Of a DNA stretch of 55,223 nt, positions 3,792 through 54,327 are shown in pieces (the first letter of the stretch is position 1; every line of letters begins with the position of its first letter). The stretch comes from a virus. Taxonomy: Duplodnaviria > Caudoviricetes. The DNA is taken from the IMG/VR virus record IMGVR_UViG_3300042868_005645, positions 1 to 55,223 of that record; one strand, given 5' to 3'. The translations under genes were made by a program, and so were the position numbers. Under the pieces are notes generated by a model, which worked only from the letters and a program-made list of their open reading frames with translations, ran no database searches and had not been told where the DNA came from.

Positions 3792-3801
3792 AATGTTGTC
3801 A

Positions 3802-3830
3802 ATTATACTAGATTTCGAAGAGTTTGTCAA
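3802..3830 (-). promoter_or_regulatory. sigma70-type promoter
   Basis: TTGACA-17-TATAAT on the minus strand. Confidence 0.8.
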
Positions 3831-12426: not shown

Positions 12427-12455
12427 AAATAGCCACTTTACAGTGGCTATTTTTT
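12427..12455 (+). terminator. intrinsic terminator
   Basis: AAATAGCCACT-ttac-AGTGGCTATTT followed by a T tract. Confidence 0.8.
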
Positions 12456-12502
12456 CCTGTACAATCACGCAACACTTACAAATTTTAATCAAGGAGCATT
12501 AA

Positions 12503-12682
12503 ATGGCTGGAACAGCAAAAAGTAATTACTTAACAGTAACTGAAGTGGTTGAGGGCAAACACGTAACAGTTTTCAACAGGATGTTTTTCAATGCAGGCGA
12601 CATGAACAAGTTCATCAAAGAAGAAAAAATTGTAGAAAAGTATCCCAAACCAAGATACACTATCTACAAAGAATGCTATTAA
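12503..12682 (+). CDS. hypothetical protein (59 aa, not in ORF track)
   Basis: AAGGAG SD; MAGTAKSNYLTV... Confidence 0.7.
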   Translation: MAGTAKSNYLTVTEVVEGKHVTVFNRMFFNAGDMNKFIKEEKIVEKYPKPRYTIYKECY

Positions 12683-12683
12683 A

Positions 12684-17562: not shown

Positions 17563-17722
17563 CTGGCATGATGGCAATGGAAAAACATTCACGGTAATAC
17601 ACACCGTCGTGATAGACGGACACACATGGGTACACTATCGCAATCAGCAAGCCGAAGAATTTAGTTGTTATGAAGAAGCATTTTTATTAAGATTTAGAGA
17701 AAATGCAAATGACAAAAATTAA
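17537..17722 (+). CDS. hypothetical protein
   Basis: Short overlapping ORF in an operon. Confidence 0.6.
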   Translation: MQKVKQGSNWHDGNGKTFTVIHTVVIDGHTWVHYRNQQAEEFSCYEEAFLLRFRENANDKN

Positions 17723-17870
17723 GTTTCGTGATTGGGTAAGGATGTGCTGGCAAGAAAATTGCATGGAACGAGACGGGTTCAACGAATCTGCCCACAGTAT
17801 TACTTACTACTTCAATCAATACAAATGGTGGCTACGAAGAGAATTTAGATATCAACAAGGCAAAAAATGA
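17709..17870 (+). CDS. hypothetical protein (53 aa, not in ORF track)
   Basis: MTKIKFRDWVRMCW...; ATGA overlap with the next gene. Confidence 0.55.
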   Translation: MTKIKFRDWVRMCWQENCMERDGFNESAHSITYYFNQYKWWLRREFRYQQGKK

Positions 17871-34025: not shown

Positions 34026-36350
34026 ATGACAAAAAGCATTATGATCGTCAAAAGGGACGGTCGTAGAGAACCACTCACCATTGAAAAATGGCAGGCACAA
34101 GTGGCTAAAGTGTGCAGTGGTATTGCGGATGTAAGTCAATCGATGATTGAAATCAAAGCACAGCCACATTTTTATGACGGAATGACTACAAAAGAGATAG
34201 ACGAGGTTACACTTAGGGCTATTGCAGATTTGATCGATGTGGAAAATAATCCAGATGTCGGACATGTCAATTATCAATATGTAGCAGGCAAACAAAAACT
34301 TAGTATGTTACGCAAAGATGTTTATGGAGACTATGAGCCTCCGCATCTTTATGAAATTGTAAAGAAGAATGTGGCCACAGGTCTTTACACTAGCGAACTA
34401 CTCACATGGTACACTGAAGAAGACTGGAATCGAATGAATGACATGATTGATCATGCCAAGGATGAAGAGTATGGATACGCCAGCATCGAGCAGTTAATTG
34501 AAAAATATTTGGTACGCAATCGTGCGACAAAGGAAATTTATGAAACTCCACAGGTTAGATACATGGTTGCGGCAGCGACTGTGTTCCATAGAGAAGAACC
34601 GAATAGTGCGAGGATGCGTTACATTAAAGAATATTATACGGCAGCATCCGATGGTTTGTTTACTCTTGCTACACCTGTGTTGGCTGGCCTCGGCACTCCT
34701 ACTAAACAGTTTTCTAGTTGTGTGCTTATCCGCAGTGACGACGATCTGGATAGCATATTTGCTTCTGGAGAGATGATGGCCAAGTATGCCAGCAAACGTG
34801 CTGGCATTGGTTTGGAGATTGGCAGATTACGTCCTTTGGGTTCGCCTATTAGAGGCGGTGAAATCATGCATACAGGTATGATTCCATTCTTAAAGAAGTG
34901 GTTTGGTGACCTGCGTAGTTGTAGTCAAGGAGGTATTCGTAATGCTAGTGCTACTGTGTTTTACCCTATTTGGCATCATCAATTTGATGATCTTATTGTA
35001 CTCAAGAACAATCAAGGGACTGAAGAGACCCGAGTTCGACACATGGATTATGGAGTCGTATTGTCAGCATTCTTCTGGAGACGATTTAAAAACAAAGAAA
35101 ACATAACTTTCTTTGATCCTAACGAAGTTCCTGACTTATACGAAGCATTTTACAAAGATACTAAACTATTTGAAGAACTGTACGTAAAATATGAACGCCA
35201 GCCCAATCTTCGCAAGAAGACTATGAGTGCTGAAGAAGTATTCAAGAGTGGTATTCTTAAAGAGCGCACTGATACAGGCCGTATCTATCTAGTGTTTATT
35301 GACAACGTGATGAATCAAGGACCGTTTGATCCTGAGTATCACACCATTTATCAGAGTAACCTTTGCTGTGAAATTCTTTTACCTACTAAGTCTTTTAAGC
35401 GCCTCGATGATGCTGATGGGCGCATCGCTTTATGCACTCTTGGTTCTATTAATTGGGGAGCCTTCCGTAATCCTGAAGATATGCGCAGGGCTTGTCGCAT
35501 TCTACATAGAAGCCTCAATAATATATTGGACTATCAAGATTTCTTATCAATTCAATCGAAGTTAAGCAATGACGAAATTCGTCCGCTAGGCATTGGTGTT
35601 ACCAATCTAGCCTATTGGCACGCCAAACGTGGACTACGCTACGGCGAAAAAGATGCACTACAAGATGTTAAGACTTGGATGGAACATCAGGCCTACTACT
35701 TAACTGAAGCCACAGTAGAGTTAGCCAAGGAACGTGGTAAGTGTGACCATAGTGACAAGACACGCTATGGACAAGGAGAGTTTCCTTGGGAACTACGTGC
35801 TGTTGGCTCCAATGACCTAGCAGACTTTACACCTGAATTAGATTGGGAAACCTTGCGTGGAGATATGCTGGAACACGGTGTACGCAATGCTACACAAATG
35901 GCCATTGCTCCTGTAGAAAGTAGCAGTGTAGTTATCAACAGTACTAATGGCATTGAAATGCCAATGAGTTTAATCAGTGTTAAAGAAAGTAAAGCAGGAT
36001 CGTTTGTACAAGTTGTGCCTGAGTATCATAAGTTGAAGAACAAGTATCAACTAATGTGGGAACAGAAAGACTGTGACGGCTATTTGAAAACTGCCGCAGT
36101 GTTACAAGTCTATGTTGATCAGAGTATCAGTACTAATACATTCTATAATCCGGCGCACTTTGCGGATCGTAAAGTTCCAACAACATTGATTGCTAAGAAT
36201 TTAATGAACTTTTTATACTGGGGTGGGAAAACATTCTACTACAGTTTAATCAACAAAGCAGGATCCCGTGCTAAAGATGATGTTCTGCAAGTTGCCCAAC
36301 AGTATGTTGAAGTTGATATAGAAGAAGACTGCGAGGCTTGTAAATTATAA
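34026..36350 (+). CDS. nrdA: class Ia ribonucleotide reductase alpha subunit
   Basis: ATP cone (VKRDG), QFSSC, SQGGIR, SNLCCEI and C-terminal CEACKL. Confidence 0.97.
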   Translation: MTKSIMIVKRDGRREPLTIEKWQAQVAKVCSGIADVSQSMIEIKAQPHFYDGMTTKEIDEVTLRAIADLIDVENNPDVGHVNYQYVAGKQKLSMLRKDVYGDYEPPHLYEIVKKNVATGLYTSELLTWYTEEDWNRMNDMIDHAKDEEYGYASIEQLIEKYLVRNRATKEIYETPQVRYMVAAATVFHREEPNSARMRYIKEYYTAASDGLFTLATPVLAGLGTPTKQFSSCVLIRSDDDLDSIFASGEMMAKYASKRAGIGLEIGRLRPLGSPIRGGEIMHTGMIPFLKKWFGDLRSCSQGGIRNASATVFYPIWHHQFDDLIVLKNNQGTEETRVRHMDYGVVLSAFFWRRFKNKENITFFDPNEVPDLYEAFYKDTKLFEELYVKYERQPNLRKKTMSAEEVFKSGILKERTDTGRIYLVFIDNVMNQGPFDPEYHTIYQSNLCCEILLPTKSFKRLDDADGRIALCTLGSINWGAFRNPEDMRRACRILHRSLNNILDYQDFLSIQSKLSNDEIRPLGIGVTNLAYWHAKRGLRYGEKDALQDVKTWMEHQAYYLTEATVELAKERGKCDHSDKTRYGQGEFPWELRAVGSNDLADFTPELDWETLRGDMLEHGVRNATQMAIAPVESSSVVINSTNGIEMPMSLISVKESKAGSFVQVVPEYHKLKNKYQLMWEQKDCDGYLKTAAVLQVYVDQSISTNTFYNPAHFADRKVPTTLIAKNLMNFLYWGGKTFYYSLINKAGSRAKDDVLQVAQQYVEVDIEEDCEACKL

Positions 36351-37009
36351 TGTTAGAAACTTGTTGCGATATACTAGTAGACGCTTATAAGCGCAATTGG
36401 ATCACCAGTAGAGATGGTAACATTTCTATTCGTCATCACGACCGTGATCACTTTTATGTAACTCCTAGCGGTGTTCGTAAACAGAACATGCAACCAGAGA
36501 TGTTTAAGAAGATTAAAATCTGGAGAAGCATTAACAGTGGAGTTGGCAGTGGTGCTTTTAACTATAATTGGGAAGTCATTGAACAAACAGACTTATCAGG
36601 CAACTTGGAACCTAGTGGTGAAATGCCTTTGCATTTTGGACTACAGAAAGAATTAGGACAGCATAAAGACGATGTGCGTGTAGTTGTACACGTTCATCCA
36701 ACTTACTGTATTGCGGCCATGCATGCCGGCATTGACCTAGCAACTGTCAGTGATTCGTTTCCAGAATTAAATCGTTATACCAAAGTAGCACACAATGTGG
36801 GAGATGTTGCTCCCATAAGTGAAGAACTAGGCGAAGCGTGTCATCGCAACTTAGGTCTGGATCGCGAAGGCAACATCAAGTTTGACATAGTAGGTATCAA
36901 AGGACACGGTGTAGTGGCCATTGGCAACACTCCGTGGCGTGCCTATGAGCACATAGAAAGATTAGAACACATTTGCAAGATAGTACTTGCATCAGGAAAA
37001 TATAAATGA
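36350..37009 (+). CDS. class II aldolase/adducin family protein
   Basis: DGNIS, TPSG, PSGE...H, HVHP and GHG motifs. Confidence 0.88.
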   Translation: MLETCCDILVDAYKRNWITSRDGNISIRHHDRDHFYVTPSGVRKQNMQPEMFKKIKIWRSINSGVGSGAFNYNWEVIEQTDLSGNLEPSGEMPLHFGLQKELGQHKDDVRVVVHVHPTYCIAAMHAGIDLATVSDSFPELNRYTKVAHNVGDVAPISEELGEACHRNLGLDREGNIKFDIVGIKGHGVVAIGNTPWRAYEHIERLEHICKIVLASGKYK

Positions 37010-38106
37010 GTCAAGCACAATATAACTTACACACAAAAACAGATTATCTCAATCGCAAGATGTTTCTGGATCCAGCAGGTCCAGTTACTATTCAACGCTT
37101 TGAAGAAGTCAAGTACAACAAGATTTCAGACTTTGAAAAAACTGCTAGAGGATTCTTTTGGGTACCCGAAGAGATTAGTCTAACCAAAGACGCCAACGAT
37201 TTTAAGGAAGCCAGCGATGCTGTCAAACATATCTTCACTAGTAACTTGCTTAGGCAAACTGCTCTTGACAGTCTGCAAGGCCGCGGCCCAAGTCAAATCT
37301 TTACTCCGGTCATAAGTCTTCCAGAACTAGAAGCACTGGTCTACAACTGGACATTCTTTGAAACAAACATTCACAGTCGCAGTTACAGTCATATCATTCG
37401 CAACATCTACAACGTACCAAAAGAAATATTTGCAACTATTCATGATACAAAAGAAATTGTTGAAATGGCAAGTAGCGTGGGCAAATACTATGATGACCTG
37501 CATATGATCAACTGCCGAAAAGAAGCCGGCGAGAAGATCAATGAGTACACACATGTCAAGGCAATCTGGTTGGCATTGAACGCTAGTTATGCACTAGAAG
37601 CACTACGCTTTATGGTTAGTTTTGCCACAAGTTTGGCCATGGTAGAGAACAAGATCTTTATTGGCAACGGCAACATCATTAGTTTGATTCTGCAAGATGA
37701 ACTACTACACAAGGGTTGGACTGCTTTCCTAATCAACCAAGTGGTCAAAGAAGATTCTAGATTTGCACAAGCCAAGGCCGACTGTGAAGCAGAAGTGTAT
37801 CAACTATATAAAGATGTGATTAGAGAAGAAAAAGAGTGGGCCGAATATTTGTTTAAAAAGGGACCTGTGATTGGACTTAATGCTCCTATCCTTTCTGACT
37901 TTGTTGACTATACTGCAACAGGTGCATTGAAAGAAATAGGCATCAAGTATCAAGCCACTGCTCCTAAATCAACTCCGATCCCGTGGTTCAACAAGCATAC
38001 AGATACCAGTAAGAAGCAAACAGCCTTACAGGAAAATGAAAGTACAAATTATGTAATTGGAGTGATGAGCGATGCCATCGACTACGAAGAATTACCAAGT
38101 TTATAA
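37006..38106 (+). CDS. nrdB: ribonucleotide reductase beta subunit
   Basis: FFWVPEE, LDSLQ, ETNIHSRSY and DELLH motifs. Confidence 0.96.
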   Translation: MSQAQYNLHTKTDYLNRKMFLDPAGPVTIQRFEEVKYNKISDFEKTARGFFWVPEEISLTKDANDFKEASDAVKHIFTSNLLRQTALDSLQGRGPSQIFTPVISLPELEALVYNWTFFETNIHSRSYSHIIRNIYNVPKEIFATIHDTKEIVEMASSVGKYYDDLHMINCRKEAGEKINEYTHVKAIWLALNASYALEALRFMVSFATSLAMVENKIFIGNGNIISLILQDELLHKGWTAFLINQVVKEDSRFAQAKADCEAEVYQLYKDVIREEKEWAEYLFKKGPVIGLNAPILSDFVDYTATGALKEIGIKYQATAPKSTPIPWFNKHTDTSKKQTALQENESTNYVIGVMSDAIDYEELPSL

Positions 38107-38118
38107 TTAAGGAAAGAA

Positions 38119-38352
38119 ATGAAAGCAACAGTATGGTCAAAGTACAATTGCCCTTATTGCGATCAAGCAAAGGCATTGTTAAAACAAAAAGGTATACCTT
38201 TTGAAGAAAAGAAAATCGGCGACGGGTATACTAAAGAAGAGTTGTTGGAAGCAGTACCCTCAGCACGTACAGTTCCTCAAATCTTCTTAGGTGACGAACT
38301 TGTCGGCGGGTTCACAGAACTGCGAGCAAGACTAACAGAGGCAAAACAATGA
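38119..38352 (+). CDS. glutaredoxin
   Basis: CPYC, TVPQIF and GG motifs. Confidence 0.93.
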   Translation: MKATVWSKYNCPYCDQAKALLKQKGIPFEEKKIGDGYTKEELLEAVPSARTVPQIFLGDELVGGFTELRARLTEAKQ

Positions 38353-42298: not shown

Positions 42299-42476
42299 AA
42301 AAATATGGGCTCGGGCAACCGGCCACTTAATGGGACACACGGACGATGACCGTCCAGATGTTCCAATTCTAACAGTCCGTGAAGCAAGGATAGCCCTTTT
42401 CTTAAAAACATTTTGGGTTATTATACACGTTGTAACCTGCTTCTTTATTATTGCCAACACCGTGCGTCATTGGTAA
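42285..42476 (+). CDS. small membrane protein
   Basis: GTG start; C-terminal hydrophobic helix. Confidence 0.55.
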
Positions 42477-42484
42477 ATACTAGT

Positions 42485-42814
42485 ATGGAACCAATTACAA
42501 TAACCGAATCGGCTGTAAAAAAGATCGCAGACCTTTTAGCAGAAGAAAATAATCCCAAGTTGTGCCTGCGCACCTTTGTTCAAGGTGGTGGATGCAGTGG
42601 ATTCCAATATGGATTCACCTTCGACGAAGAACAAGCAGAAGACGATTTTGTCATCGAGCGTGACAGTGTTAAAGTTCTCATAGACGCTATGAGTTACCAA
42701 TACTTATTGGGCTCAGAGATCAACTATACCGAAGATGCTATGGGTAGTAGTTTTACTATTAAAAATCCAGCAGCCAAATCTACCTGTGGTTGCGGTAGTA
42801 GTTTTAGTGTATAA
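42485..42814 (+). CDS. erpA: iron-sulfur cluster insertion protein ErpA
   Basis: [13 protein letters not shown] and [10 protein letters not shown] motifs. Confidence 0.9.
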
Positions 42815-42822
42815 GGAAACAC

Positions 42823-43209
42823 ATGGCCTATTCAGATAAAGTTATTGACCATTACGAAAATCCTCGCAACGTAGGATCGTTTGCCAAAGATGATCCAACT
42901 GTGGGCACAGGCATGGTGGGTGCTCCTGCCTGTGGTGATGTGATGAAACTACAGATAAAGGTTGACAATGATACAGGTATTATTACAGATGCAAAATTTA
43001 AAACGTATGGCTGTGGATCGGCTATCGCAAGTTCGAGTCTTGTCACAGAGTGGCTTAAAGGAAAAACCCTCGACCAAGCAGGAACAATCAAAAACAAAGA
43101 AATAGCAGAAGAACTAGCCCTACCTCCAGTAAAGATACATTGTTCAATTTTAGCAGAAGATGCTATCAAAGCAGCCGTTGATGATTACCGTAACCGACAC
43201 AGCACGTAA
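42823..43209 (+). CDS. iscU: Fe-S cluster scaffold IscU
   Basis: HYENPRNVG, GAPACGD, GCGSAIASSS and LPPVKIHC motifs. Confidence 0.96.
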   Translation: MAYSDKVIDHYENPRNVGSFAKDDPTVGTGMVGAPACGDVMKLQIKVDNDTGIITDAKFKTYGCGSAIASSSLVTEWLKGKTLDQAGTIKNKEIAEELALPPVKIHCSILAEDAIKAAVDDYRNRHST

Positions 43210-43507
43210 ACGCATCAAACAGAATTTAGACAAACGCGGCAAAGGCCTAGGTATTCGCATAGGCGTGAGAACCACAGGTTGCAGTGGTTTAGCCTACACC
43301 ATCGAGTATGTGGATGAATACACTGCTGAACCCGGAGTTACTAATTTTGGTCAACCAGAATTCATTGTGCTGATTGACGCTAAGAGTTTGGCTTATCTAA
43401 ATGGCTTGACAATGGATTGGGTTCGCAACGGACTCAATGAAGGATTCGATTTCATCAATCCTAATGAGCGTGACCGTTGTGGATGTGGAGAAAGTTTTAG
43501 AGTTTAA
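43181..43507 (+). CDS. iscA: Fe-S assembly A-type carrier IscA
   Basis: GVRTTGCSGLAY and CGCGESF motifs. Confidence 0.92.
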   Translation: MITVTDTARKRIKQNLDKRGKGLGIRIGVRTTGCSGLAYTIEYVDEYTAEPGVTNFGQPEFIVLIDAKSLAYLNGLTMDWVRNGLNEGFDFINPNERDRCGCGESFRV

Positions 43508-44568: not shown

Positions 44569-44600
44569 ATAGACTATTACAGTAAACAGTTGGAGTTCAA

Positions 44601-44996
44601 ATGAGTATGCACCTAGAAGGCCCTTGGCTCAGCACCACTGGCAAGCGAAAAGGTAAAAAGAAATTTGCCTCAGCAGAACATGCAAAAAAGGCTCGTGAAT
44701 TGGAAGAGTCTTGGAAAGAATTGCTCAAAAGACAAGGTGTTGAGCAAGAGGAAAGAAAACGTGCTCGTGGTATGAGTGCTCCAAGTTTGAGCAGTTCCTA
44801 CAGCCTCAAGATTCCAGAAGGTCGTAACACTACAGCACATATCAAAAGTGTTGATACTGGTGGTAATGCTGTACTAAAACCTAGTCCAGTGTATACAGGT
44901 ACAAAGGTCAAAGGTATTGCCACCATGCACAAGAGCAATGCTGTTCCAGTGTTTTCGGATGAGCAAGCAGTAGATATTTCCAAAATGCGACGATAA
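44601..44996 (+). CDS. basic hypothetical protein
   Basis: GGAG SD; GIATMHKSNAVPVF C-terminal motif. Confidence 0.8.
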   Translation: MSMHLEGPWLSTTGKRKGKKKFASAEHAKKARELEESWKELLKRQGVEQEERKRARGMSAPSLSSSYSLKIPEGRNTTAHIKSVDTGGNAVLKPSPVYTGTKVKGIATMHKSNAVPVFSDEQAVDISKMRR

Positions 44997-45033
44997 TCTT
45001 GCATTTTTTAATGGAATATTGTACAATGAGATA

Positions 45034-45288
45034 TATACTGTACGTTTCGCAAAGAAACTAAGATAGTAGAACTAAAGTATGTCACAAGCAGAAACGGTTC
45101 CGCGGGTCTTGGCCAATGAGAAACCCGTATTTTCGGGAAGCCAAGGGTCGCCAAAGGCACACTGATTATGAGACAGTGCGTCCAATGGAGACAACTACAC
45201 GAAAGTAGGGTTCTTTCAGAGCCTCGTGAAGTTAACTCCCTTTATGTAATGTGATTAGAAATAATCACACCAAGTCAAAGGAGGACTT
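45034..45288 (+). ncRNA. putative structured RNA / cis-regulatory leader of the wall hydrolase gene
   Basis: Promoter TTGCAT-17-TACAAT (44999-45027); about 250 nt with no ORF and multiple hairpins. Confidence 0.55.
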
Positions 45289-45837
45289 ATGGAAAAATTA
45301 GTTAAAATCAGCACCTACATTTTGGCGCTGTTGTCAGTGGTCTTGGTTGTAAATGCCATCACCGAAAGAAAATTTGAAATTCTTAAGAAAAACAATGGTT
45401 ACTATAATACAGATATAGTTTCTATTAAGACACGTGAGCGTCAACTAGATTGTTTGGCCATGAACATCTATAGAGAGGCAGGACACGAATCGTTTGAAGG
45501 TAAAGTTGCTGTGGCACAGGTTACACTAAATCGAGTAGAACATCCTAGTTTTCCAAAAGATGTCTGCGGTGTAATTTACCAAAAAACATCATTTATGGAC
45601 AAAGTCGTTTGCCAGTTCTCATGGTATTGCGAAAGTGCCACAAAGGCTCGTCCTATAAACAAAGCCGCATATGACGAAAGTTATGCTGTGGCCAAGAAGG
45701 TTCTTTTAGAAAATTTTAGATTGGACGTTATGAAGGATGCATTGTACTATCATGCAAACTATGTAAATCCAAGATGGAATTTGGACAAAATTGGATCAAT
45801 CGGTAATCACATTTTTTATAAACCAAAAGGGCAATAA
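45289..45837 (+). CDS. cell wall hydrolase, SleB/Hydrolase_2 family
   Basis: CLAMNIYREAGHE, AVAQVTLNRV, CQFSWYC and IGNHIFY motifs; N-terminal TM segment. Confidence 0.9.
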   Translation: MEKLVKISTYILALLSVVLVVNAITERKFEILKKNNGYYNTDIVSIKTRERQLDCLAMNIYREAGHESFEGKVAVAQVTLNRVEHPSFPKDVCGVIYQKTSFMDKVVCQFSWYCESATKARPINKAAYDESYAVAKKVLLENFRLDVMKDALYYHANYVNPRWNLDKIGSIGNHIFYKPKGQ

Positions 45838-45839
45838 TC

Positions 45840-46151
45840 ATGACACAAAGCAATTATTCTTTGGAAACAGTTAAAACATTCTTTGTTGAAAAATTTCGAA
45901 ACATCTCAGCCGAAACATTGGGGTGGATCGCTGTAATAATTCTACACTCTGCAACCATTCCAAGCCTACTAGCAGTAATGGCTGGATTGACTGATAGACT
46001 GCCAGGTGTTGACTTAGTTCTTTTGGTTTGGTCCGGCCTAGCACTGTTGTTTGTCAAAGCCGCAGTCCAAAAAGACATGCTGAACATTGTTACTATTGGT
46101 TTTGGTTTCATCGTTCAAGCAGTATTGATGGCATTGATATTCTTCAAATAA
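45840..46151 (+). CDS. 3-TM membrane protein
   Basis: Three hydrophobic helices; directly after the hydrolase. Confidence 0.75.
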   Translation: MTQSNYSLETVKTFFVEKFRNISAETLGWIAVIILHSATIPSLLAVMAGLTDRLPGVDLVLLVWSGLALLFVKAAVQKDMLNIVTIGFGFIVQAVLMALIFFK

Positions 46152-46169
46152 CATCGATTACCAAACCAG

Positions 46170-46198
46170 TTGACACCACCTCCGGGTGGTGTTATACT
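46170..46198 (+). promoter_or_regulatory. sigma70-type promoter with palindromic spacer
   Basis: TTGACA-17-TATACT overlapping ACACCACC-tccg-GGTGGTGT. Confidence 0.7.
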
Positions 46199-46243
46199 AT
46201 GTACATAGTGAAAACTATTAATCAACACACAGAAAGGCACATT

Positions 46244-46723
46244 ATGAAAAAGGCAATTTTAATTAGTTTGGCGGCTGTAGCCATCACTGGCTGTAGTTCA
46301 ATGAAAGATATTCCGGATCGTAAAACATACGCACAGCCGGATTGGTATCAGAGTTGCGCCCAAGAGGGTGTCAAGGGCTGGTTCTGGTGGAAAGAAGATA
46401 TGGTCTATGCCTGCGGCGCTGGCGAGTCTGCATTTGCACAAGCCGCTGAAGAGCAGATGGATGCTATTGCAATGAACAACTTTGCAAAACGTATCGACGG
46501 TGTGGTTAATTCCGAAACCGTTATTGACATCAAAGACGATAAGAAATCTACTCGTACAACTATTTCTTATAAAGTTGATAACACTTCTATCCGTAAACAT
46601 GTTAAAACGGAAAAGGGTCATTTCACTATGAATGGACGTCATTACACTTACGTTCGTCTTGAAATGAAGAAAGATGTATTTGAACAGTTGATTGCTGAAG
46701 CCAAAACATCTAAGGCACGATGA
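46244..46723 (+). CDS. lipoprotein (LPP20-like)
   Basis: MKKAILISLAAVAITGC lipobox; PDWY motif. Confidence 0.75.
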   Translation: MKKAILISLAAVAITGCSSMKDIPDRKTYAQPDWYQSCAQEGVKGWFWWKEDMVYACGAGESAFAQAAEEQMDAIAMNNFAKRIDGVVNSETVIDIKDDKKSTRTTISYKVDNTSIRKHVKTEKGHFTMNGRHYTYVRLEMKKDVFEQLIAEAKTSKAR

Positions 46724-47070
46724 TGCGACCCCTTACTATAGCAGTTGGACCTACACTACTGTTAGCATGTCTTCTGACGTTAACAGGGTGCGCAAGTTAT
46801 CCTGAATCTGCTAGACTAAAGCCACAGTATTGTTATACTAATCAAACCATTGATGTTAAAAATGGAGAGAAAGTTTCCAGCGATACAAGATTAGAATGTA
46901 CTGACGATCCTACAAAACAGTTGTTCCAGGCTCGTAGTGGTATATCTAAAGATTGTAGGGAATTTTATTATGTCATGCCTCTAAGAGGCGAATTGGTTGA
47001 AAGGAGAGGTTATGCTTGCCAAAAGTTCTCAGGTGTTAGTGAAGTTTTTAATCCTGGTCAGCATCGCTAG
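46720..47070 (+). CDS. lipoprotein
   Basis: LTGC lipobox; four further Cys. Confidence 0.7.
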   Translation: MMRPLTIAVGPTLLLACLLTLTGCASYPESARLKPQYCYTNQTIDVKNGEKVSSDTRLECTDDPTKQLFQARSGISKDCREFYYVMPLRGELVERRGYACQKFSGVSEVFNPGQHR

Positions 47071-47458: not shown

Positions 47459-48850
47459 ATGGTATTTGCTTTCTTACTTGCTATCTCAGGATTAACACTA
47501 TCGGCTGTGGCCATTTATTATAGTGTTATAGGTTTAACCGCAGTGTTTGCCGCGGCATTCTGGCCCATTGTAATAATGGGTACAACACTAGAAATATCTA
47601 AACTTGTAGCCGCAAGTTGGCTTAAAGCCTACTGGGACAAAATTCCAGTAAGTATGAAAATATACATGACTATGGCAGTGGTGGTACTTATGTTCATTAC
47701 CAGCATGGGTATATTTGGATTCTTAAGTAAAGCACACTTGGATCAAAATATTGTCAGCGGAGATGTTCAAGGTAAAATTGCCATCTATGACGAGAAGATA
47801 AAAACTGAACGGGAGAATATCGATGCCGCACGTACAGCACTTAGTCAAATGGATGCGCAGGTTAATGAACGACTTAGTCGTAGCACCGACGACCGTGGTG
47901 CAGAACGAGCCGTCCAAATCCGCAGACAGCAACAAGCAGAACGAACTAGACTCCAAAACGATATTTCTAGGTCACAGGGTGCTATTGCTAAACTCAACGA
48001 AGAACGAGCCCCTATCGCCGCAGAAGTCCGCAAAGTCGAAGCCGAAGTTGGACCAATAAAATATATTGCCGCATTAATCTACGGCGATAACCCAGATGCT
48101 AATATATTAGAAAAAGCAGTAACATGGGTCATTATGATTATTGTGTTTGTGTTTGACCCACTGGCTATTCTAATGTTGTTGGGCGCACAAATGACTTACA
48201 AATGGCACAAAGAGCGACAAGAGTACACTGAAATGGCCAGTGACTTATATGAAGTTTCAAAACCCCAAGAAGAAAAAATTGACGAGCCTGACATAGAGGA
48301 AGGCAATCGCCTCTTGGCAGAGATTGAAAAGGAAGAACCAGTGTGGCCTACGCCTAGTCCTTATTGGCCATTCCCCAAAGCAGAAAAAATAGAAGAAATT
48401 AATCCTAGAGATTTAGATCTCAACGAAGCAGCCAAAGCAGAAAAAGTTGACATTGTTGAACAAGCGGGTCTTGAACAATGGAACCGAATGATAGAAGAAG
48501 CAGAACGTGAACTTCAAAAAGAAAAAGTCACTGAAACAGAGTTTGATATCGAAGAACATGCAAGGTCTTATGACGTTGATCAAACAGAATCGGTTAAGGA
48601 TCGTATGCGCCAGTGGAAACTAGAAAATCCCAATTCCACTATTAAAGAAGAACGTGCAAAGAGAGATCTGGGAATAATTGAAACCCTACCATGGGAAGAA
48701 ACAGAAACGGACACAGCAGAGAAAAAAACGTATATGGTAAAAGAAGGAGATCAGCAAGTTATCAAAACTCGAGATGATACCTATGTACAAAATGCTGAAC
48801 AGACCACAGAAACACTATGGCAAAGAATACAAGACAAAAAAGCAAAATGA
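47459..48850 (+). CDS. membrane protein with coiled coil and acidic C-terminal tail
   Basis: Three N-terminal TM helices, SMGIFGFLSKAH, coiled coil, FVFDPLA. Confidence 0.8.
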   Translation: MVFAFLLAISGLTLSAVAIYYSVIGLTAVFAAAFWPIVIMGTTLEISKLVAASWLKAYWDKIPVSMKIYMTMAVVVLMFITSMGIFGFLSKAHLDQNIVSGDVQGKIAIYDEKIKTERENIDAARTALSQMDAQVNERLSRSTDDRGAERAVQIRRQQQAERTRLQNDISRSQGAIAKLNEERAPIAAEVRKVEAEVGPIKYIAALIYGDNPDANILEKAVTWVIMIIVFVFDPLAILMLLGAQMTYKWHKERQEYTEMASDLYEVSKPQEEKIDEPDIEEGNRLLAEIEKEEPVWPTPSPYWPFPKAEKIEEINPRDLDLNEAAKAEKVDIVEQAGLEQWNRMIEEAERELQKEKVTETEFDIEEHARSYDVDQTESVKDRMRQWKLENPNSTIKEERAKRDLGIIETLPWEETETDTAEKKTYMVKEGDQQVIKTRDDTYVQNAEQTTETLWQRIQDKKAK

Positions 48851-49230
48851 TTCCAAAAAAAGTAACATTAATTACTCCACCGGATATACTGTCTAATCGT
48901 ACACAAAGTATATTGTTAGTTACTCCAAACAGTGACATAAAAGATTTCTTAGATGATTACTTAAAAACATTTAATGCTAACATTCATGTGTACCTTTATA
49001 CACCTTCGGATGCTGACATTAAGTGGCTGTTAACTGTAGCAGTTAGAGCAGAGGCTGTTATACTAGATTGCGATAATGCGCCCGATGATTTAAGTCATTT
49101 CTTGTCATACATTATCAGTATGCCTAATACATACTACAGAATAACTAATCCTAAAGTTGATTATTCTATCATTAACCCAAACAGGTTTTATGATTTTCCT
49201 AATTTAAATGAGAAGTTAAGGTCGCTATGA
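48847..49230 (+). CDS. hypothetical protein
   Basis: ATGA-coupled; LITPPD motif. Confidence 0.7.
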   Translation: MIPKKVTLITPPDILSNRTQSILLVTPNSDIKDFLDDYLKTFNANIHVYLYTPSDADIKWLLTVAVRAEAVILDCDNAPDDLSHFLSYIISMPNTYYRITNPKVDYSIINPNRFYDFPNLNEKLRSL

Positions 49231-49457
49231 AAACTAAAACGTTCGGCAATGTAGTACATGTAAGAGAAGGCGAGCCTTTTGAAAAGGCTATGCGAAGATT
49301 TAAAAAGAAAGTACAAGATTCGGGATTGCTAGAAGATCTGCGTAGTCGTGAGTTCTATGAAAAACCAACAACTGCTCGTAAGAGAGCAAAAAGTGCGGCC
49401 GCGAATCGCTGGCGCAAAGAATTGGCAAAACAAGCATTGCCAAAAAAACTGTTTTAA
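49227..49457 (+). CDS. rpsU: ribosomal protein bS21
   Basis: VREGEPFEKAMRRFKKKV...REFYEKPTTARKR. Confidence 0.92.
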   Translation: MKTKTFGNVVHVREGEPFEKAMRRFKKKVQDSGLLEDLRSREFYEKPTTARKRAKSAAANRWRKELAKQALPKKLF

Positions 49458-49471
49458 TATCGGATATCCGG

Positions 49472-49560
49472 TATAAATAAATTTGTAGGACGCCAATAGG
49501 GTCTTATAAATCGGAGCATGGTGCTCCAAAACGTTCTTGCTTAATATAAGGAGAAAAACT
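49472..49560 (+). promoter_or_regulatory. late promoter plus ROSE-like RNA thermometer leader
   Basis: TATAAATA followed by three hairpins; the last pairs UUCUUGCU with the AAGGAGAA SD. Confidence 0.6.
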
Positions 49561-49995
49561 ATGAACGCATTAACTCGTTTTGATACAAACAGTCTCGCTC
49601 AACTAAACAGAGCACTTATCGGATTTGATCGCATCTTTAACGATGCCGAACGCAGATTCGCTAATTCACCACAAACCAATTATCCACCATTCAATATTCT
49701 AAAGCACGATGACGATCATTTTGAGATCGAAGTTGCTGTGGCAGGATTTGACAAGGAAGATGTCAGCATCGAGGTGGATCAGAATCTATTGACTATTCGT
49801 GGTCAACGTCTCAAGGAAGATGATGCCAGCAAGTATGTGCATCGCGGACTTGCAGCCAGAGATTTTGAACGCACCTTTACCATGGCAGATTATATGGAAG
49901 TGGGGGACGCCGAGTTGACTAACGGTATTCTTCGTGTTAAACTAACACGTATAATCCCTGAAGCACTTAAACCACGTTTAATTGCTATCAAGTAA
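49561..49995 (+). CDS. small heat-shock protein Hsp20 (IbpA-like)
   Basis: NYPPFNI, AVAGF, YVHRGLAARDF and LxNGIL motifs. Confidence 0.93.
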   Translation: MNALTRFDTNSLAQLNRALIGFDRIFNDAERRFANSPQTNYPPFNILKHDDDHFEIEVAVAGFDKEDVSIEVDQNLLTIRGQRLKEDDASKYVHRGLAARDFERTFTMADYMEVGDAELTNGILRVKLTRIIPEALKPRLIAIK

Positions 49996-49998
49996 AGT

Positions 49999-50021
49999 AT
50001 GGGGGCTTTGTCCCCCATTTT
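49999..50021 (+). terminator. intrinsic terminator
   Basis: ATGGGGG-ctttgt-CCCCCAT followed by TTT. Confidence 0.7.
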
Positions 50022-50045
50022 ATAAATATCTAAAAGAGGAAAGTT

Positions 50046-50351
50046 ATGTCAACCGCAATGGATGTGCAAATTGATGAAAAAATCAAAAAGGTAATTGCAG
50101 AACCTAAAAAATATAAAATCATCTTTCTTAATGATGATAAGACTCCTATTGAATTTGTGATTGAATTGCTTATTTCAATATTTCGCCATACAGAAGAAAC
50201 TGCCAAGGATATTACACTGGCAGTACACAATGATGGTTCGGCTGTTGTAGGAATTTACACTTTTGAAATTGCTGAACAAAAAACCATCGAGACAACACAG
50301 GTTTGTCGACAGCATGGATTTCCATTACAAGTTAGAATGGAACAGGAATGA
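50046..50351 (+). CDS. clpS: ATP-dependent Clp protease adaptor ClpS
   Basis: YKIIFLNDDKTPIEFV, VHNDG, EIAEQK and FPLQV motifs; TATAAATA at 50021. Confidence 0.92.
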   Translation: MSTAMDVQIDEKIKKVIAEPKKYKIIFLNDDKTPIEFVIELLISIFRHTEETAKDITLAVHNDGSAVVGIYTFEIAEQKTIETTQVCRQHGFPLQVRMEQE

Positions 50352-50893
50352 GTCTTAGAGAAATAACTAAAGACCTCCACCATGAGGCAGAACTAACTAA
50401 GTTCGCCAAGATGTTACTCAGCGGTAAGATTGAAAAACAAGATTACAAAAACTATCTGTACAATTTACTTGCAATTTACGATCCAATTGAATGGTATTGC
50501 AAACGTCAAGGCTTTCTGGATACAATGCCAGACCTTCCCCGTCTCAAGGGTATCCTTGCAGACTTCCTAGAATTAGACGATGGCACTTACTGCTATCTAA
50601 CTCCTGCTACTCTAGAGTATCAAGCATACTTACATAAACTAGGAAACGATGAACAACGTAAACATTTGGTTAAGGCGCATTTATACTGCCGCCATATGGG
50701 CGACCTATTCGGTGGTCAAATCATTAAGAAACAAGTAGCACATATCAGCAAGGGCAAGTTCTATGACTTTGATAATGCTGATGATATGAAAATGTCTATT
50801 CGCCAAACACTCACAGACGACCTGGGCGATGAGGCATGTGTAGCATTTGAATATGCTATTAAGATGATGAAGGACTTGTACCATGGAGAGTAA
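50348..50893 (+). CDS. hemO: heme oxygenase (biliverdin-producing)
   Basis: LREITKDLHHEAE (proximal His) and AHLYCRHMGDLFGGQ. Confidence 0.9.
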   Translation: MSLREITKDLHHEAELTKFAKMLLSGKIEKQDYKNYLYNLLAIYDPIEWYCKRQGFLDTMPDLPRLKGILADFLELDDGTYCYLTPATLEYQAYLHKLGNDEQRKHLVKAHLYCRHMGDLFGGQIIKKQVAHISKGKFYDFDNADDMKMSIRQTLTDDLGDEACVAFEYAIKMMKDLYHGE

Positions 50894-51566
50894 AGTATGG
50901 AGTACACTAATTGAAATACAACAACTTCTCGAAGCGTCGTTCAGTCAAACGGGAGTCGAAGTCTTCGAACCTGGAATGGATCGTTTTAATCAACCTGGTT
51001 GGGTTAATCGTGTATGGACTAGCGATAAGTATCGCCGGGCCCACATTGATGTCGTTGATGCTAGGCTGACCAAAGGCCTTTGGATGATGCACTGCTGTGT
51101 GTTTCCACATATTCATAATCCTGCACCTATCTTTGGTTTTGACGTAGTTGCTGGCAAGAATAAGATTACTGGTTGCTTTATCGATTATAGCCCAACAGGT
51201 GACAAGACTCATCCGATGATTGACTACTTTGGCGACGAAGTTAGTCGCTACGAGTGGAACAAGAAACGTGCTTTGCCAGAGTGGGCACAGCGTATTTTCA
51301 GTGAGCATATGGTGGCCGCTGGTAATGTCAGTGACGAACACGAATTAGATCAAATTGCTAGTCTAGCCAGCATTCTAGTTAATCATTATGTAGAAACTGT
51401 AGGAGAAACAAATAACACTACAGCAGACACTACATTTGAGCAGAACTACTATGCACAGAATCAAAAGCAAAACCCACATACACCCAAAGTTATGGTAAGT
51501 TTGGGGCTTTCAGAAGACGATGTACAGGTATTTGTTCAGGATTGTTTGTTTCCTGAGATACGATAA
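50883..51566 (+). CDS. pcyX: ferredoxin-dependent bilin reductase, PcyA/PcyX family (PcyX-like)
   Basis: RRAHID...MHCCVFP...PIFGFDVVAG...DYSP, LPEWA..IFS and QKQNPHT motifs; follows heme oxygenase. Confidence 0.85.
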   Translation: MESKVWSTLIEIQQLLEASFSQTGVEVFEPGMDRFNQPGWVNRVWTSDKYRRAHIDVVDARLTKGLWMMHCCVFPHIHNPAPIFGFDVVAGKNKITGCFIDYSPTGDKTHPMIDYFGDEVSRYEWNKKRALPEWAQRIFSEHMVAAGNVSDEHELDQIASLASILVNHYVETVGETNNTTADTTFEQNYYAQNQKQNPHTPKVMVSLGLSEDDVQVFVQDCLFPEIR

Positions 51567-51587
51567 ATATCTAATACTGGAAAACAT

Positions 51588-53018
51588 ATGAGAGCAAAAG
51601 AATTTATTATTGAAGGCACCCTTACACCTGCTGAGATCTTTGGTAAACATTTGGGATGGCGTCCTGACGCATTGATAGCAAAACTACAAGCCAAAACTTC
51701 GTTTGTTGATAAACTTGATCTTACTGTAGCCAACCAATATGTTCCCGCAGACGGAGAATATGAAAGATTGGCCCCGTTGATTACCGCAGCCAAAGATGCT
51801 CTAACAGCCAACGACACTGCTCCAAAACCCAGTCTCACGCTGAACTACAAATCAATAATTCGCCCAGACGGTAAAGTTGATAAAACCGCTGGATCTATTG
51901 CGTTCAGCAAACTAGAAAAGTACGATCTGCAAACTGCTAAAGGTCAAGCAACTAGTACGGTTAATGTTCAGCCCATAGGCATTGGTATCGCCGCTCCTAA
52001 AGTCGACAAAAATGTGAGTATTGCTGATGAAATTAAAAACGCACTTGACAATAATTCATCAATTGCAGGCAAAGACATACACCGAACAATTATGAACAAT
52101 TCGGTATTGGATCAAGCAGGTGAATTAGGCAAGGCTATCAAACAAGCCTCCAAAGAGATTCATCAAAAACAAAATCCCACTGTGAATCAGTACGATAAAA
52201 AAACACAAACTGTTATAGCCATCGACGCAGGCGAATACTTAGGCATTCAGCAGATGATCGATGGATCAGCCGATTGGAAAGGCAAGTACGAGGCATTTTT
52301 GAAATTCTTAGGCGCGGGTGATTTAAACAGCATGAAGGTAATTTTTCCAGGAAGTCAAAATAGTCAACTACAAGACAGTTACGGAGTACAAAATGCGGCG
52401 ACCGGTCATACTATAATGATCAGCAGTAAAGGCGGCATTGGTTCAACTGCGGCAGGTGCCGCACCTGCACTAAGTGGATTAGTTTTGCCACCAAATATGA
52501 CTAAAAAAGTCAAACCTGGTAGCGGTGCAGACTTTATCCTGTTGTTGCAAAGAATGACCACTATCAACCAGCCGTTTGCTGGTATGAATTTTTTGAACAC
52601 ACACTATCCGGACGCAGTTCCAGAATTGTATAAAAATTTACTGCCGTTCACAAATGAAGACATACTGTCGATCAACGCAAACATCAAAGGGCGTGGCGAT
52701 TTAGATCCTAGATTTGATGCAATTATTGCGTCTAGAGATATCAAATCGCGAGCAAGAAAAGGCGGAATCTTGATGTATGCCACTGCCAAAGATCTAGTAG
52801 AAACTATAAACACCAATCAACCTATTCCAGATTTTCGTCAAACAGTTCTAAACGTTTTAGATATGAACTTTGTCCAAATCTTTTCTAGAGTTGTAGGCGG
52901 AAAACTCAAGGCCGATGTGCTATGGCCTGGCAAAATTGACGGAAATGTTTTACTATGGACCAAAGCAGAAGCGGCAGCACCTAGTTCCGCTGGATTTAGT
53001 TTCAAAGTTATAGACTAA
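51588..53018 (+). CDS. hypothetical protein, possibly virion-internal
   Basis: 476 aa; TAAATA upstream; MRAKEFIIE N-terminus. Confidence 0.75.
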   Translation: MRAKEFIIEGTLTPAEIFGKHLGWRPDALIAKLQAKTSFVDKLDLTVANQYVPADGEYERLAPLITAAKDALTANDTAPKPSLTLNYKSIIRPDGKVDKTAGSIAFSKLEKYDLQTAKGQATSTVNVQPIGIGIAAPKVDKNVSIADEIKNALDNNSSIAGKDIHRTIMNNSVLDQAGELGKAIKQASKEIHQKQNPTVNQYDKKTQTVIAIDAGEYLGIQQMIDGSADWKGKYEAFLKFLGAGDLNSMKVIFPGSQNSQLQDSYGVQNAATGHTIMISSKGGIGSTAAGAAPALSGLVLPPNMTKKVKPGSGADFILLLQRMTTINQPFAGMNFLNTHYPDAVPELYKNLLPFTNEDILSINANIKGRGDLDPRFDAIIASRDIKSRARKGGILMYATAKDLVETINTNQPIPDFRQTVLNVLDMNFVQIFSRVVGGKLKADVLWPGKIDGNVLLWTKAEAAAPSSAGFSFKVID

Positions 53019-53036
53019 TTTGGTTAACCATTTTCC

Positions 53037-53065
53037 TTGACAACTATATAAAGATATTATATAAT
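53037..53065 (+). promoter_or_regulatory. sigma70-type promoter
   Basis: TTGACA-17-TATAAT. Confidence 0.8.
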
Positions 53066-53092
53066 AAAGATATCGTTATAAAGGAGATTTTA

Positions 53093-53770
53093 ATGTACGC
53101 AACTACTGGAGTTTATCGCTCTGCCTCTCAGATCAATTCGGCAATGGGTCGAGTTTTTGGACACATGGGACTTGCTGTTGTAACCAGTATGATTGTTTCT
53201 ATGCTGGTGGCTGGTAGTCCAGGTCTAATGGCACTGTTATTTGGAACAGCACTTAAATGGGTCGTTATTTTTGCACCATTGGTAGCAATCCTTGCACTAA
53301 GTTTTGGTCTTGAAAAATTAACCAAGACACAGGCTACTGTAGCACTACACGGATTCGCCGCGCTGATGGGTGTTAGTTTTGCCACAATTTTTGTAGTCTA
53401 TAATCTAGGCAGTATTGTTTCGGCATTCATGGGAGCCGCTGTGTTGTTTGGAACTATGGCATTTTATGGGTATTTTACAAAACGTGACTTGAGTGGAGTT
53501 GGACAGTTCTTGTTCATTGGTTTGATTGCCATTGTTATTGCCAGCATCATTAATATTTTTATTGGTAGCAGTGTAGCACAAATGGTGATTTCAGCATTGG
53601 CCATTATTATCTTCACAGGACTTACTGCCTACGACACACAAAACATTCGTCAGATGGTAAGTGTGGATAATCCAGGCAACCTCGAGATTGCTGGAGCACT
53701 TTCATTGTATCTAAACTTCATCAACATCTTCCTAAGTTTGCTACAGTTGTTTGGACAGAAAAACGACTAA
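53093..53770 (+). CDS. Bax inhibitor-1/YccA family membrane protein
   Basis: Seven TM helices; AYDTQNIR and ALSLYLNFINIF motifs. Confidence 0.9.
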   Translation: MYATTGVYRSASQINSAMGRVFGHMGLAVVTSMIVSMLVAGSPGLMALLFGTALKWVVIFAPLVAILALSFGLEKLTKTQATVALHGFAALMGVSFATIFVVYNLGSIVSAFMGAAVLFGTMAFYGYFTKRDLSGVGQFLFIGLIAIVIASIINIFIGSSVAQMVISALAIIIFTGLTAYDTQNIRQMVSVDNPGNLEIAGALSLYLNFINIFLSLLQLFGQKND

Positions 53771-53785
53771 CTTGGTAGACTATTT

Positions 53786-53811
53786 AAAAACCGTCTTAGG
53801 ACGGTTTTTTT
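53786..53811 (+). terminator. intrinsic terminator
   Basis: AAAAACCGTC-ttag-GACGGTTTTT. Confidence 0.85.
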
Positions 53812-53889
53812 ACGATTGAATAATCTGCATACTTAAAAAATTAACTACTAGTTTTAAATACAATAACAGCGGATATCGGGAGCAAAGCG

Positions 53890-54327
53890 ATGAGAAAGTT
53901 ATTGTTATTATTACTAGTACCATTGTCTACACAGGCAGCAGATCTAGTACATCAGTTTCAAAGTCCAGCCTTTATTCCAGGCAATGGATTCAGTCAGCAC
54001 GTTCTTAGTATCTACCAATTAGAAGAATCTAAAAAGAAAGAAATTAAAGCAGAAGAACTAGCGGCAATAAACAAAGCGGAAGCGGCCGCAAAGAATACAA
54101 ACTTAGCAAAATTTCTAATTAACGTAGAAGCACGTATCTACGCACAATTATCTAAACAACTAGCAGATCAACTGTTCGCTGAAGGTGGCGGCACCAGTGG
54201 AAGCATGGACTTTCAAGGAACTAATATAAGTTGGGTTAAGTCAAGCACAGACGTTACCCTTACTATAATTGAAGCCAATGGCGGACGAACAGAAATCACC
54301 GTACCTATATCAAGTTTTGCATTCTAA
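53890..54327 (+). CDS. csgF: curli assembly CsgF-like protein
   Basis: Signal peptide then LVHQFQSPAF..GN; adjacent to csgG. Confidence 0.75.
   Translation: MRKLLLLLLVPLSTQAADLVHQFQSPAFIPGNGFSQHVLSIYQLEESKKKEIKAEELAAINKAEAAAKNTNLAKFLINVEARIYAQLSKQLADQLFAEGGGTSGSMDFQGTNISWVKSSTDVTLTIIEANGGRTEITVPISSFAF

Follow-up and report, generated by a model that had tools for sequence, protein, structure and literature searches.

The window analysed here is a virus-record fragment of 55,223 bases (IMG/VR record IMGVR_UViG_3300042868_005645, Caudoviricetes), for which CheckV gives a completeness of 16%, implying a genome of about 350 kb. The subject is a non-coding gap of 292 bases, which separates an open reading frame (ORF) from a gene for a SleB-like cell wall hydrolase. 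An earlier note, made from the letters of this DNA, had described the gap as a long structured RNA leader, and it does rank among the longest gaps in a crude ORF map of the window. The conserved region of an RNA family, 45032-45291 (+), runs from within the gap to the ATG of the hydrolase, with an RNA body of about 250 nt. It is close to certain that this body is a real structured RNA on the + strand, and six helical elements, H1-H6, were found in it, joined by near-invariant linkers. The reading preferred here, at a probability of about 55%, is that positions 45038-45288 (+) form the 5′ leader of the hydrolase mRNA and serve as a translational ON/OFF switch. The two genes that border the gap are as follows.

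44601-44996, + strand: ORF upstream of the leader, matching PHROG 27048 (function unassigned) and no Pfam family
45289-45837, + strand: SleB-like hydrolase gene, matching Pfam Hydrolase_2 (PF07486, E 2e-26) and 'endolysin' families of PHROGs (E 2e-21)

The N-terminus of the hydrolase, MEKLVKISTYILALLSVVLVVNAI, contains a hydrophobic segment that may serve for export or anchoring.

A family of leaders in front of wall-degrading enzymes

Relatives of the hydrolase number at least 591 in IMG/VR, and the 80 best loci were kept. A gap of about 290 nt was found in 25 of these 80, aligning to the gap of the window at 74-100% identity, and the downstream proteins of the 25 loci are 57-100% identical to the window hydrolase. 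Pattern scans yielded at least 119 stretches from viral contigs and at least 120 from metagenome contigs. A covariance model, R1, was built from 20 sequences with the structure drawn up in the present analysis, and it gave full or end-cut matches in 59 of 59, 81 of 82, 100 of 100 and 17 of 17 candidate loci. After removal of duplicates, at least 142 distinct full-length copies of the RNA remained from viral and metagenome contigs, of which the 100 most divergent make up alignment A3, the basis of all counts out of 100 given below. A single copy was found in each of ten phage records searched whole, one of them 353 kb long and 98% complete.

In all the collected copies the RNA stands at the start of a gene for a wall-degrading enzyme, or of an ORF that could not be classed, and never away from a hydrolase start. 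The ORF 3′ of the 142 copies is of the Hydrolase_2 type in 119 and of the DPBB type (RlpA-like lytic transglycosylase) in 12, is too short to call in 10 and is unclassified in one, an ORF cut short that starts like the DPBB proteins. The DPBB assignment was checked on three examples (Pfam DPBB_1, E about 1e-23), and the RNA is present in 17 of 17 close DPBB homologues. Both types of enzyme begin with a hydrophobic segment, again a putative export or anchor signal. Among the hydrolase loci with short gaps, R1 matched none of 55, and the existence of related hydrolases without the RNA means that it is not essential to the enzyme. In six of these RNA-less relatives (L028, L030, L037, L046, L051 and L076) a different leader of about 100-120 nt was observed, at about 1380-1500 before the hydrolase ATG at 1501, with two hairpins, CAGCAG...TGCTG and GTGTGT-AGCG-ATACAC, just 5′ of the Shine-Dalgarno (SD) sequence and apparent compensatory changes in L028. 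Structured leaders in front of the hydrolase may be a wider theme.

The family belongs to uncultivated freshwater giant phages. A blastn search of 44600-45840 against cultured phages returned no match, and the closest cultured relative of the hydrolase is 41% identical at the protein level. No match of R1 (E up to 1) was obtained on Phage C48C1, on Delftia phage PhiW-14 or on contig L212 from a Maribacter bin; the C48C1 endolysin has no gap in front of it. Crocinitomicaceae or Maribacter were considered as hosts on the strength of two R1 hits in bins of metagenome-assembled genomes and were rejected, the two hits being small contigs and short contigs being often mis-binned.

Relative to the locus identical to the window (L001), mean nucleotide identity is 0.81 for the leader, 0.71 for the hydrolase coding sequence (CDS) and 0.66 for the upstream CDS, and the leader exceeds the neighbouring CDS in 14 of 16 comparisons; the leader is under stronger constraint than the genes beside it. 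Internal deletions were seen in L005 (about 50 nt, ~1294-1500) and in L024 (about 20 nt, ~1256-1500), with loss of parts of H2 and H3; they may reflect errors of assembly or else naturally defective variants.

The earlier note recognised no known family in the leader, and this was borne out by the Rfam scan that it had named as a check. Rfam 15 (4227 models) gave no match at the gathering threshold over the whole window. A search of 44900-45400 returned only five chance hits (E 3.5-9.2, 10-15 bits against cut-offs of 43-90), and one of 20 diverse members (E up to 5) returned four unrelated hits (E 2.8-4.7), none of them recurring. The cyclic di-AMP (c-di-AMP) riboswitch model, ydaO-yuaA or RF00379, is absent from the hit lists of both searches, at E up to 10 for 44900-45400 and up to 5 for the 20 members. 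ARAGORN found no tRNA in the leader. A small ORF within it was also considered and rejected: the longest internal ORFs vary in start, end and frame, with the commonest pair of boundaries in 9 of 100 copies, and leader lengths modulo 3 are distributed 33/34/33, so that no ORF is conserved. No published description of the motif in front of phage or SleB/RlpA hydrolase genes was found in the literature, supplementary files lying outside the scope. The YjbJ motif of Streptococcus, as far as an excerpt of its source describes it (PMC11109978), is unrelated. The leader is a new RNA family within a known kind, the cis-acting structured mRNA leaders.

Helices, linkers and covariation

The elements of the leader are given below in 5′ to 3′ order, with pairing percentages from A3; pairs changed on both sides are called double-changed.

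44999-45027, + strand: TTGCAT-N17-TACAAT, a weak, clade-specific promoter match found in the window's close relatives only (L001-L005 and L016)
45032-45037, + strand: TATATA box, in 93 of 100 copies, 6-9 nt 5′ of H1; family sequence conservation starts here
45044-45058, + strand: H1, hairpin GUUUC/GAAAC with loop GCAAA in the window; 98% paired, almost invariant
45059-45068, + strand: J1/2, linker UAAGAUAGUA, with AGAUAGU at least 97% conserved
45069-45100, + strand: H2, hairpin of variable length with basal stem 45069-73/45096-100; 99.2% paired, 4 of 5 pairs double-changed, among the top mutual-information pairs
45102-45151, + strand: H3, long helix 45102-05/45148-51 and 45107-13/45140-46, enclosing a conserved internal loop CAAUGAGAAA and an inner hairpin CCCG/CGGG (45124-27/45134-37)
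45156-45183, + strand: H4, hairpin 45156-58/45180-83 and 45160-64/45174-78; 96.3% paired, 8 of 8 pairs double-changed
45184-45192, + strand: J4/5, AAUGGAGAC, with AUGGAGA at least 97% conserved (ATGGAGA in 98 of 100 copies); its GGAG at 45187-90 is the proposed anti-anti-SD
45187-90/45236-39, + strand: H5a, GGAG/CUCC; 99.5% paired, zero double changes
45193-96/45230-33, + strand: H5b, AACU/AGUU; three double-changed pairs (H5b-d are 91-93% paired)
45198-202/45224-28, + strand: H5c, CACGA/UCGUG; five double-changed pairs
45209-14/45218-23, + strand: H5d, GGUUCU/AGAGCC; 93% paired, four double-changed pairs
45236-45249, + strand: anti-SD CUCCCUU, then the invariant (U/A)AUGUAAUG; extended as CUCCCUU..AU, pairable with the SD region 45274-83 in 99.4% of cells
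45250-45269, + strand: H6, hypervariable hairpin 45250-57/45262-69 directly 5′ of the ribosome-binding site; 94.5% paired, 5 of 7 pairs double-changed
45270-45291, + strand: conserved CCAAGUCAAAGGAGG (CACCAA in 98 of 100 copies), SD AAGGAGG at 45278-84 and ATG at 45289-91

The + strand folds with a better energy than 200 of 200 shuffles (z -3.89), and the - strand does likewise (200 of 200, z -4.29), so that folding energy alone cannot choose between them. The choice is made by the frequent G-U pairs, since a pair such as U-G at 45211/45221, found in 86 of 100 copies, is a mismatch on the opposite strand; the + strand is therefore the RNA strand. Covariation, another check named earlier, was tested on the 100 homologues of A3, and the structure proved both conserved and covarying. 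Paired cells amount to 91.3% against 81.4% in shuffles and 31 of 60 pairs are double-changed against 20.8 in shuffles, counts that lean toward the model structure because A3 was fitted to it. The covariation score is 0.314, compared with 0.130 for shuffles (none of 500 reached it) and 0.03-0.06 for slid-partner controls. Furthermore, an independent ranking by mutual information was topped by the predicted pairs. An all-against-all search for pseudoknots, that is, for Watson-Crick-consistent covarying columns outside the model, returned only register artefacts of H3 and clade-correlated one-sided changes.

The H1 loop is GNRA-like in 97 of 100 copies, reading GCAAA in 68, a GNRA tetraloop in 23 and another G...A pentaloop in 6, with other loops in 3. 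H3 has an invariant 5′ strand and a 3′ strand of at least seven forms, all of which remain complementary by way of wobble-compatible changes, bulges and mismatches. It is out of register in the model-fitted alignment, where it is 78% paired; folded in isolation, the region adopts H3 in 99 of 100 copies (43 distinct forms), and the exception carries a deletion. The H4 loop is variable, with long insertions in some members, and four pair types occur at 45253/45266 in the H6 stem, TGTGATTA/TAATCACA in the window.

The stems listed in the earlier note can be set against this structure. GTTTC/GAAAC is H1, CACTG/CAGTG at 45160-78 (96% paired, 5 of 5 pairs double-changed) is the inner part of H4, GGTTCT/AGAGCC at 45209-23 is H5d, and the TGTGATTA-gaaa-TAATCACA hairpin is H6. 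A segment at 45236-43 had been thought able to pair with the SD, and its CTCCCTT can do so in 99% of cells, both sides being nearly invariant. CGGGT/ACCCG at 45103-27 must give way, its middle pair being broken in 70 of 100 copies, to the alternative partner CGGG at 45134, which the note had also named and which forms the conserved CCCG/CGGG inside H3. Two further stems were not sustained: CTAC/GTAG is 71% paired, with inner pairs broken in 39 and 51 of 100 copies, and AAGTC/GACTT around the SD is 56% paired only.

Second partners exist for several invariant segments. J1/2 is pairable with GCGRGUCUUGG at 45102-12 in 99% of cells, with one-sided changes only (A-U to G-U, 10 of 100 copies), and RNAalifold picked this alternative helix on alignment A1. 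UCUUGG at 45107-12 has two partners, GCCAAGG within H3 or the 5′ CUAAGAU, and CUAAGAU:GUCUUGG is pairable yet invariant. AACCC (45122-26) and GGGUU (45208-12) are likewise pairable and invariant, in a helix that clashes with the covarying H5d, and CUUGG might pair with CCAAG (45270-74), both segments being invariant. These duplicated partners of invariant segments are suggestive of two global folds.

As for the 5′ boundary, the sigma70-like promoter with which the leader had been said to start is doubtful, because TTGCAT-17-TACAAT scores 8 of 12, received no call in the promoter scan and is confined to close relatives. Other clades have a terminator-like hairpin or other sequence at its position, and better -10 hexamers lie farther upstream in some relatives. 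In L012 and L019 (~1200-1235) a hairpin resembling a terminator, CCACC-N9-GGTGG-TTTT, takes the position of TTGCAT..TACAAT behind the upstream ORF, so that the leader there would need its own promoter. For the TATATA box two readings are offered, a promoter element of the -10 type that lacks a -35 and the 5′ terminus of the RNA itself. TATATA was also considered as a general promoter motif; the window contains 14 such sites, seven of them between ORFs and at varied distances to gene starts.

A possible switch at the ribosome-binding site

The 3′ block keeps one order, CUCCCUU(U/A)AUGUAAUG, H6, CACCAA(G/A)U(C/G)AAAGGAG and an ATG 5-9 nt on, in 141 of 142 distinct copies, and very probably the RNA is a cis-regulator of the gene that it precedes. 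A switch by sequestration of the SD is proposed. In the ON state CUCC(CUU) at 45236-42 would pair with the upstream GGAG at 45187-90, so that the H5 domain is closed and the SD free; in the OFF state the same segment would pair with GGAG of the SD at 45280-83 and block 30S binding. The 200-nt body H1-H5 would decide which pairing wins, and the trigger could be a protein, a small molecule or how far the infection has advanced. In just this form the mechanism is given an even chance. Enzymes with their own export signals would not need a holin, and mistimed translation could harm the cell wall too early. The scan placed no terminator between the RNA and the ATG, its only terminator-like sites (45309-45339) lying inside the CDS; H6 is followed by CACCAAGU and no U run.

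Within the proposed anti-SD helix the sole informative variation fits the pairing, U45245 facing G in 72 and A in 27 of 100 copies at 45274. Partition-function folds give a mean probability of 0.54 to H5a and 0.34 to the anti-SD:SD helix; of the 100 copies, 64 have H5a as the dominant state, 27 have anti-SD:SD and 9 have neither. These ensembles ignore pseudoknots and co-transcriptional folding, a first point to be held against the switch. For the window sequence the probabilities are 0.78 and 0.10, respectively, and its minimum-energy fold pairs the anti-SD with the upstream GGAG. Such a fold would also be expected of a constitutive 5′ untranslated module that does not switch and makes the mRNA more stable or its translation more efficient, for instance by an RNase E-blocking 5′ hairpin or a standby site, and with TATATA as the -10, H1 would stand at the 5′ end or close to it. 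This explanation is very unlikely, however, as it accounts neither for an invariant anti-SD with a duplicated GGAG partner nor for the near-equal competition of two states across homologues and the extreme conservation of the linkers.

Among known mechanisms the closest, by analogy, is the inhibitory mRNA structure of T4 gene e, the lysozyme gene, as described in an excerpt of Uzan and Miller (2010; PMC3014915). In both cases the gene encodes a phage wall-degrading enzyme and an upstream complementary segment can sequester the ribosome-binding site; the T4 structure, as excerpted, is one simple hairpin with internal late promoters that lead to an active short transcript, whereas the present leader has 250 nt, six covarying helices and a duplicated GGAG competitor, and shares no sequence relationship with it. 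The same excerpt names T4 lysozyme, soc, 49 and I-TevI as genes controlled via transcript length. Transferred to this locus, long transcripts containing CUCC would be silent and an internal promoter, for instance at the conserved TGTAAT (45246-51), would later give short translated ones. The block ATGTAATG is indeed invariant as DNA (98 of 100 copies) and resembles a -10 hexamer, and the regulated gene is a lysis-type enzyme, but a single hairpin would suffice for such control and the 200 nt of covarying H1-H5 would be left unexplained. Moreover, the T4-type TATAAATA is absent between anti-SD and SD (45236-45288), the hypervariability of H6 leaves no conserved -35 or late-promoter context in that interval, and the promoter scan of the + strand from 45030 to 45290 found nothing, which makes transcript-length control quite improbable.

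Conservation is not limited to the helices. Columns at least 97% invariant account for 44 of 118 unpaired and 52 of 118 paired positions, the linkers being conserved about like the stems, so that sequence and not structure alone is constrained. A protein-bound translational operator, in which a phage or host protein on single-stranded blocks and hairpins represses or activates initiation, would suit this pattern, and AAUGAGA, AAUGGAGA, UAAUGUAAUG and AAAGGAG are candidate blocks. T4 RegA, the gene 32 operators, ribosomal-protein leaders and CsrA-type GGA sites provide models for such an operator. AAUG-type and GGA motifs recur in the linkers and at the SD, in repeats that were spotted by eye and whose chance occurrence was not assessed, and the layout as a string of hairpins suits recognition by protein. 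T4 employs repressors of this sort, according to the excerpt cited above (PMC3014915). On the other hand, the gene context links no candidate binding protein to the leader, the neighbours being without assignable function in Pfam and PHROGs, and the conserved 250-nt body is far larger than known phage operators; the operator is considered unlikely.

Transcription was approached through public sequencing runs. Sampled words of the family were found at 7-14% in 24 runs (23 recorded as RNA, from 21 studies), and contigs were used from four of these, X1-X4. The leader is covered by contigs in all four, which are RNA-library runs from four studies of freshwater, lake or aquatic samples. Record 11 of X2 covers 45091-45296 and continues into the hydrolase start of a relative, record 23 of X4 covers 45101-45296, and record 6 of X1 joins 45270-45832; leader and start of the coding region are joined in two contigs, records 6 and 11. 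These contigs are compatible, if weakly, with a transcript of leader plus CDS. In X1 the summed contig depth is 143-323 on 45040-45215 and 7-36 on the flanks, as might be expected of a stand-alone structured RNA (trans-acting, catalytic or scaffolding) that shares its promoter region with the hydrolase gene, and the size, conservation and GNRA-type loop also recall large orphan non-coding RNAs. An excess of depth is, however, expected from conservation alone, since the contigs of many relatives align only to the conserved part; confounded as they are by conservation, the X1 peak and the uncovered flank bins of X2-X4 do not speak for a separate RNA. With no terminator after the RNA, with SD and start codon inside the conserved 3′ block, and with one copy per phage record, always at a hydrolase start among the collected copies, a stand-alone RNA is most unlikely. 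The interpretation offered in the earlier note, riboswitch-like translational control or an independent RNA, finds partial support in its first part, as regards a conserved, covarying and unlisted RNA fixed before the hydrolase ribosome-binding site with a conserved anti-SD present, and is disfavoured in its second.

That the leader is a riboswitch sensing a metabolite is rated as clearly less likely than not. Rated slightly lower still is the fuller proposal of a new riboswitch class, in which the ligand of H1-H5 would be a second messenger or metabolite of the host that reports envelope or infection state, and its binding would free the hydrolase SD; equally tentative candidate ligands are cyclic dinucleotides and precursors or turnover products of peptidoglycan. 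Large conserved orphan structured RNAs are rare, and most of those followed up have proved to be riboswitches, ribozymes or other functional RNAs. In function the closest analogues may be the c-di-AMP (ydaO) and rpfB leaders. A passage of PMC9960051 places the c-di-AMP riboswitch (ydaO-yuaA, RF00379) in front of cell-wall hydrolase genes such as Corynebacterium nlpC, and as a large structured 5′ leader at peptidoglycan-hydrolase genes it would be the obvious analogue if the trigger were a nucleotide messenger; the present leader, without a match to RF00379 and without a visible pseudo-two-fold symmetric layout, is not a member. The Mycobacterium tuberculosis rpfB RNA switch is described in a passage of PMC6009663 as an orphan riboswitch-like leader of a wall-cleaving enzyme, and it resembles the present one in controlling an enzyme potentially lethal to its own cell; it is bacterial and shows no homology by the tests run.

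Further observations weigh against the switch or against its sensing a metabolite. All three switch segments are essentially invariant, so that covariation cannot separate the two pairings, and the two 'double changes' seen in the anti-SD helix arise from L006 and L010, where the register is shifted by one base. For a metabolite aptamer, hairpins strung together with no single helix to close them are an unusual layout, and the gene context hints at no ligand beyond 'cell wall'. The contigs show neither ends nor strand, DNA can occur in RNA libraries, and one RNA-library contig (record 22) extends 59 nt upstream across TATATA. Homologous hydrolases of related phages do without the RNA (0 of 55), and its association with DPBB genes may stem from one cassette replacement and not from independent recruitments.

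The RNA is abundant in lake viromes, with at least 142 distinct copies, occurs once per genome in phages of about 350 kb and is tied to enzymes able to kill the host cell from within. A true switch would give access to the timing or dosing of wall degradation by uncultivated giant phages, exerted at translation rather than by a holin clock. True ligand binding would make it a new riboswitch class, one of few in viruses, with wall degradation timed by sensing host chemistry through RNA.

A probable enzyme replacement and the surroundings of the leader

Homologues of the genes immediately around the window's leader and hydrolase are missing from the DPBB loci, which share with the window, farther downstream, a gene for a protein of about 137 aa and the gene for bS21 (48817-49454 in the window). 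In the window, bS21 is phage-encoded at 49227-49454 (+) (Pfam Ribosomal_S21, E 1.7e-20), preceded by the conserved 137-aa gene at 48817-49227. In the divergent DPBB lineage the pair lies directly 3′ of the RNA-led DPBB gene, as follows.

L207, 352-609, - strand: bS21 gene
L208, 329-598, - strand: bS21 gene

Since the 137-aa and bS21 genes lie downstream in both arrangements, the locus is partly syntenic and points to one cassette replacement, not to two independent recruitments. In the simplest history the leader stayed in place while the enzyme cassette behind it was replaced once.

Directly 3′ of the hydrolase, at 45840-47070, a 103-aa protein with several hydrophobic segments is encoded, along with two ORFs with lipoprotein-type signal sequences (46241-46723 and 46720-47070). 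Together with the hydrolase this region may form a lysis cassette; no Pfam or PHROGs family was matched by its ORFs. Further long stretches without an ORF of at least 70 aa occur in the crude map at 3371-3807, 12429-12683 and 17563-17866, none with an Rfam match.

A cluster for Fe-S assembly lies shortly upstream of the leader at 42413-43507, with two Fe-S_biosyn (IscA-like) genes and one NifU_N (IscU-like) gene, and in the cultured distant relative Phage C48C1 a NifU-like gene stands four genes ahead of the endolysin. A host-like auxiliary run at 49537-54324 encodes HSP20, ClpS, heme oxygenase, ferredoxin-dependent bilin reductase, Bax1-I and CsgF. At 34026-38349 the large and small subunits of ribonucleotide reductase flank a class II aldolase gene and are followed by glutaredoxin.

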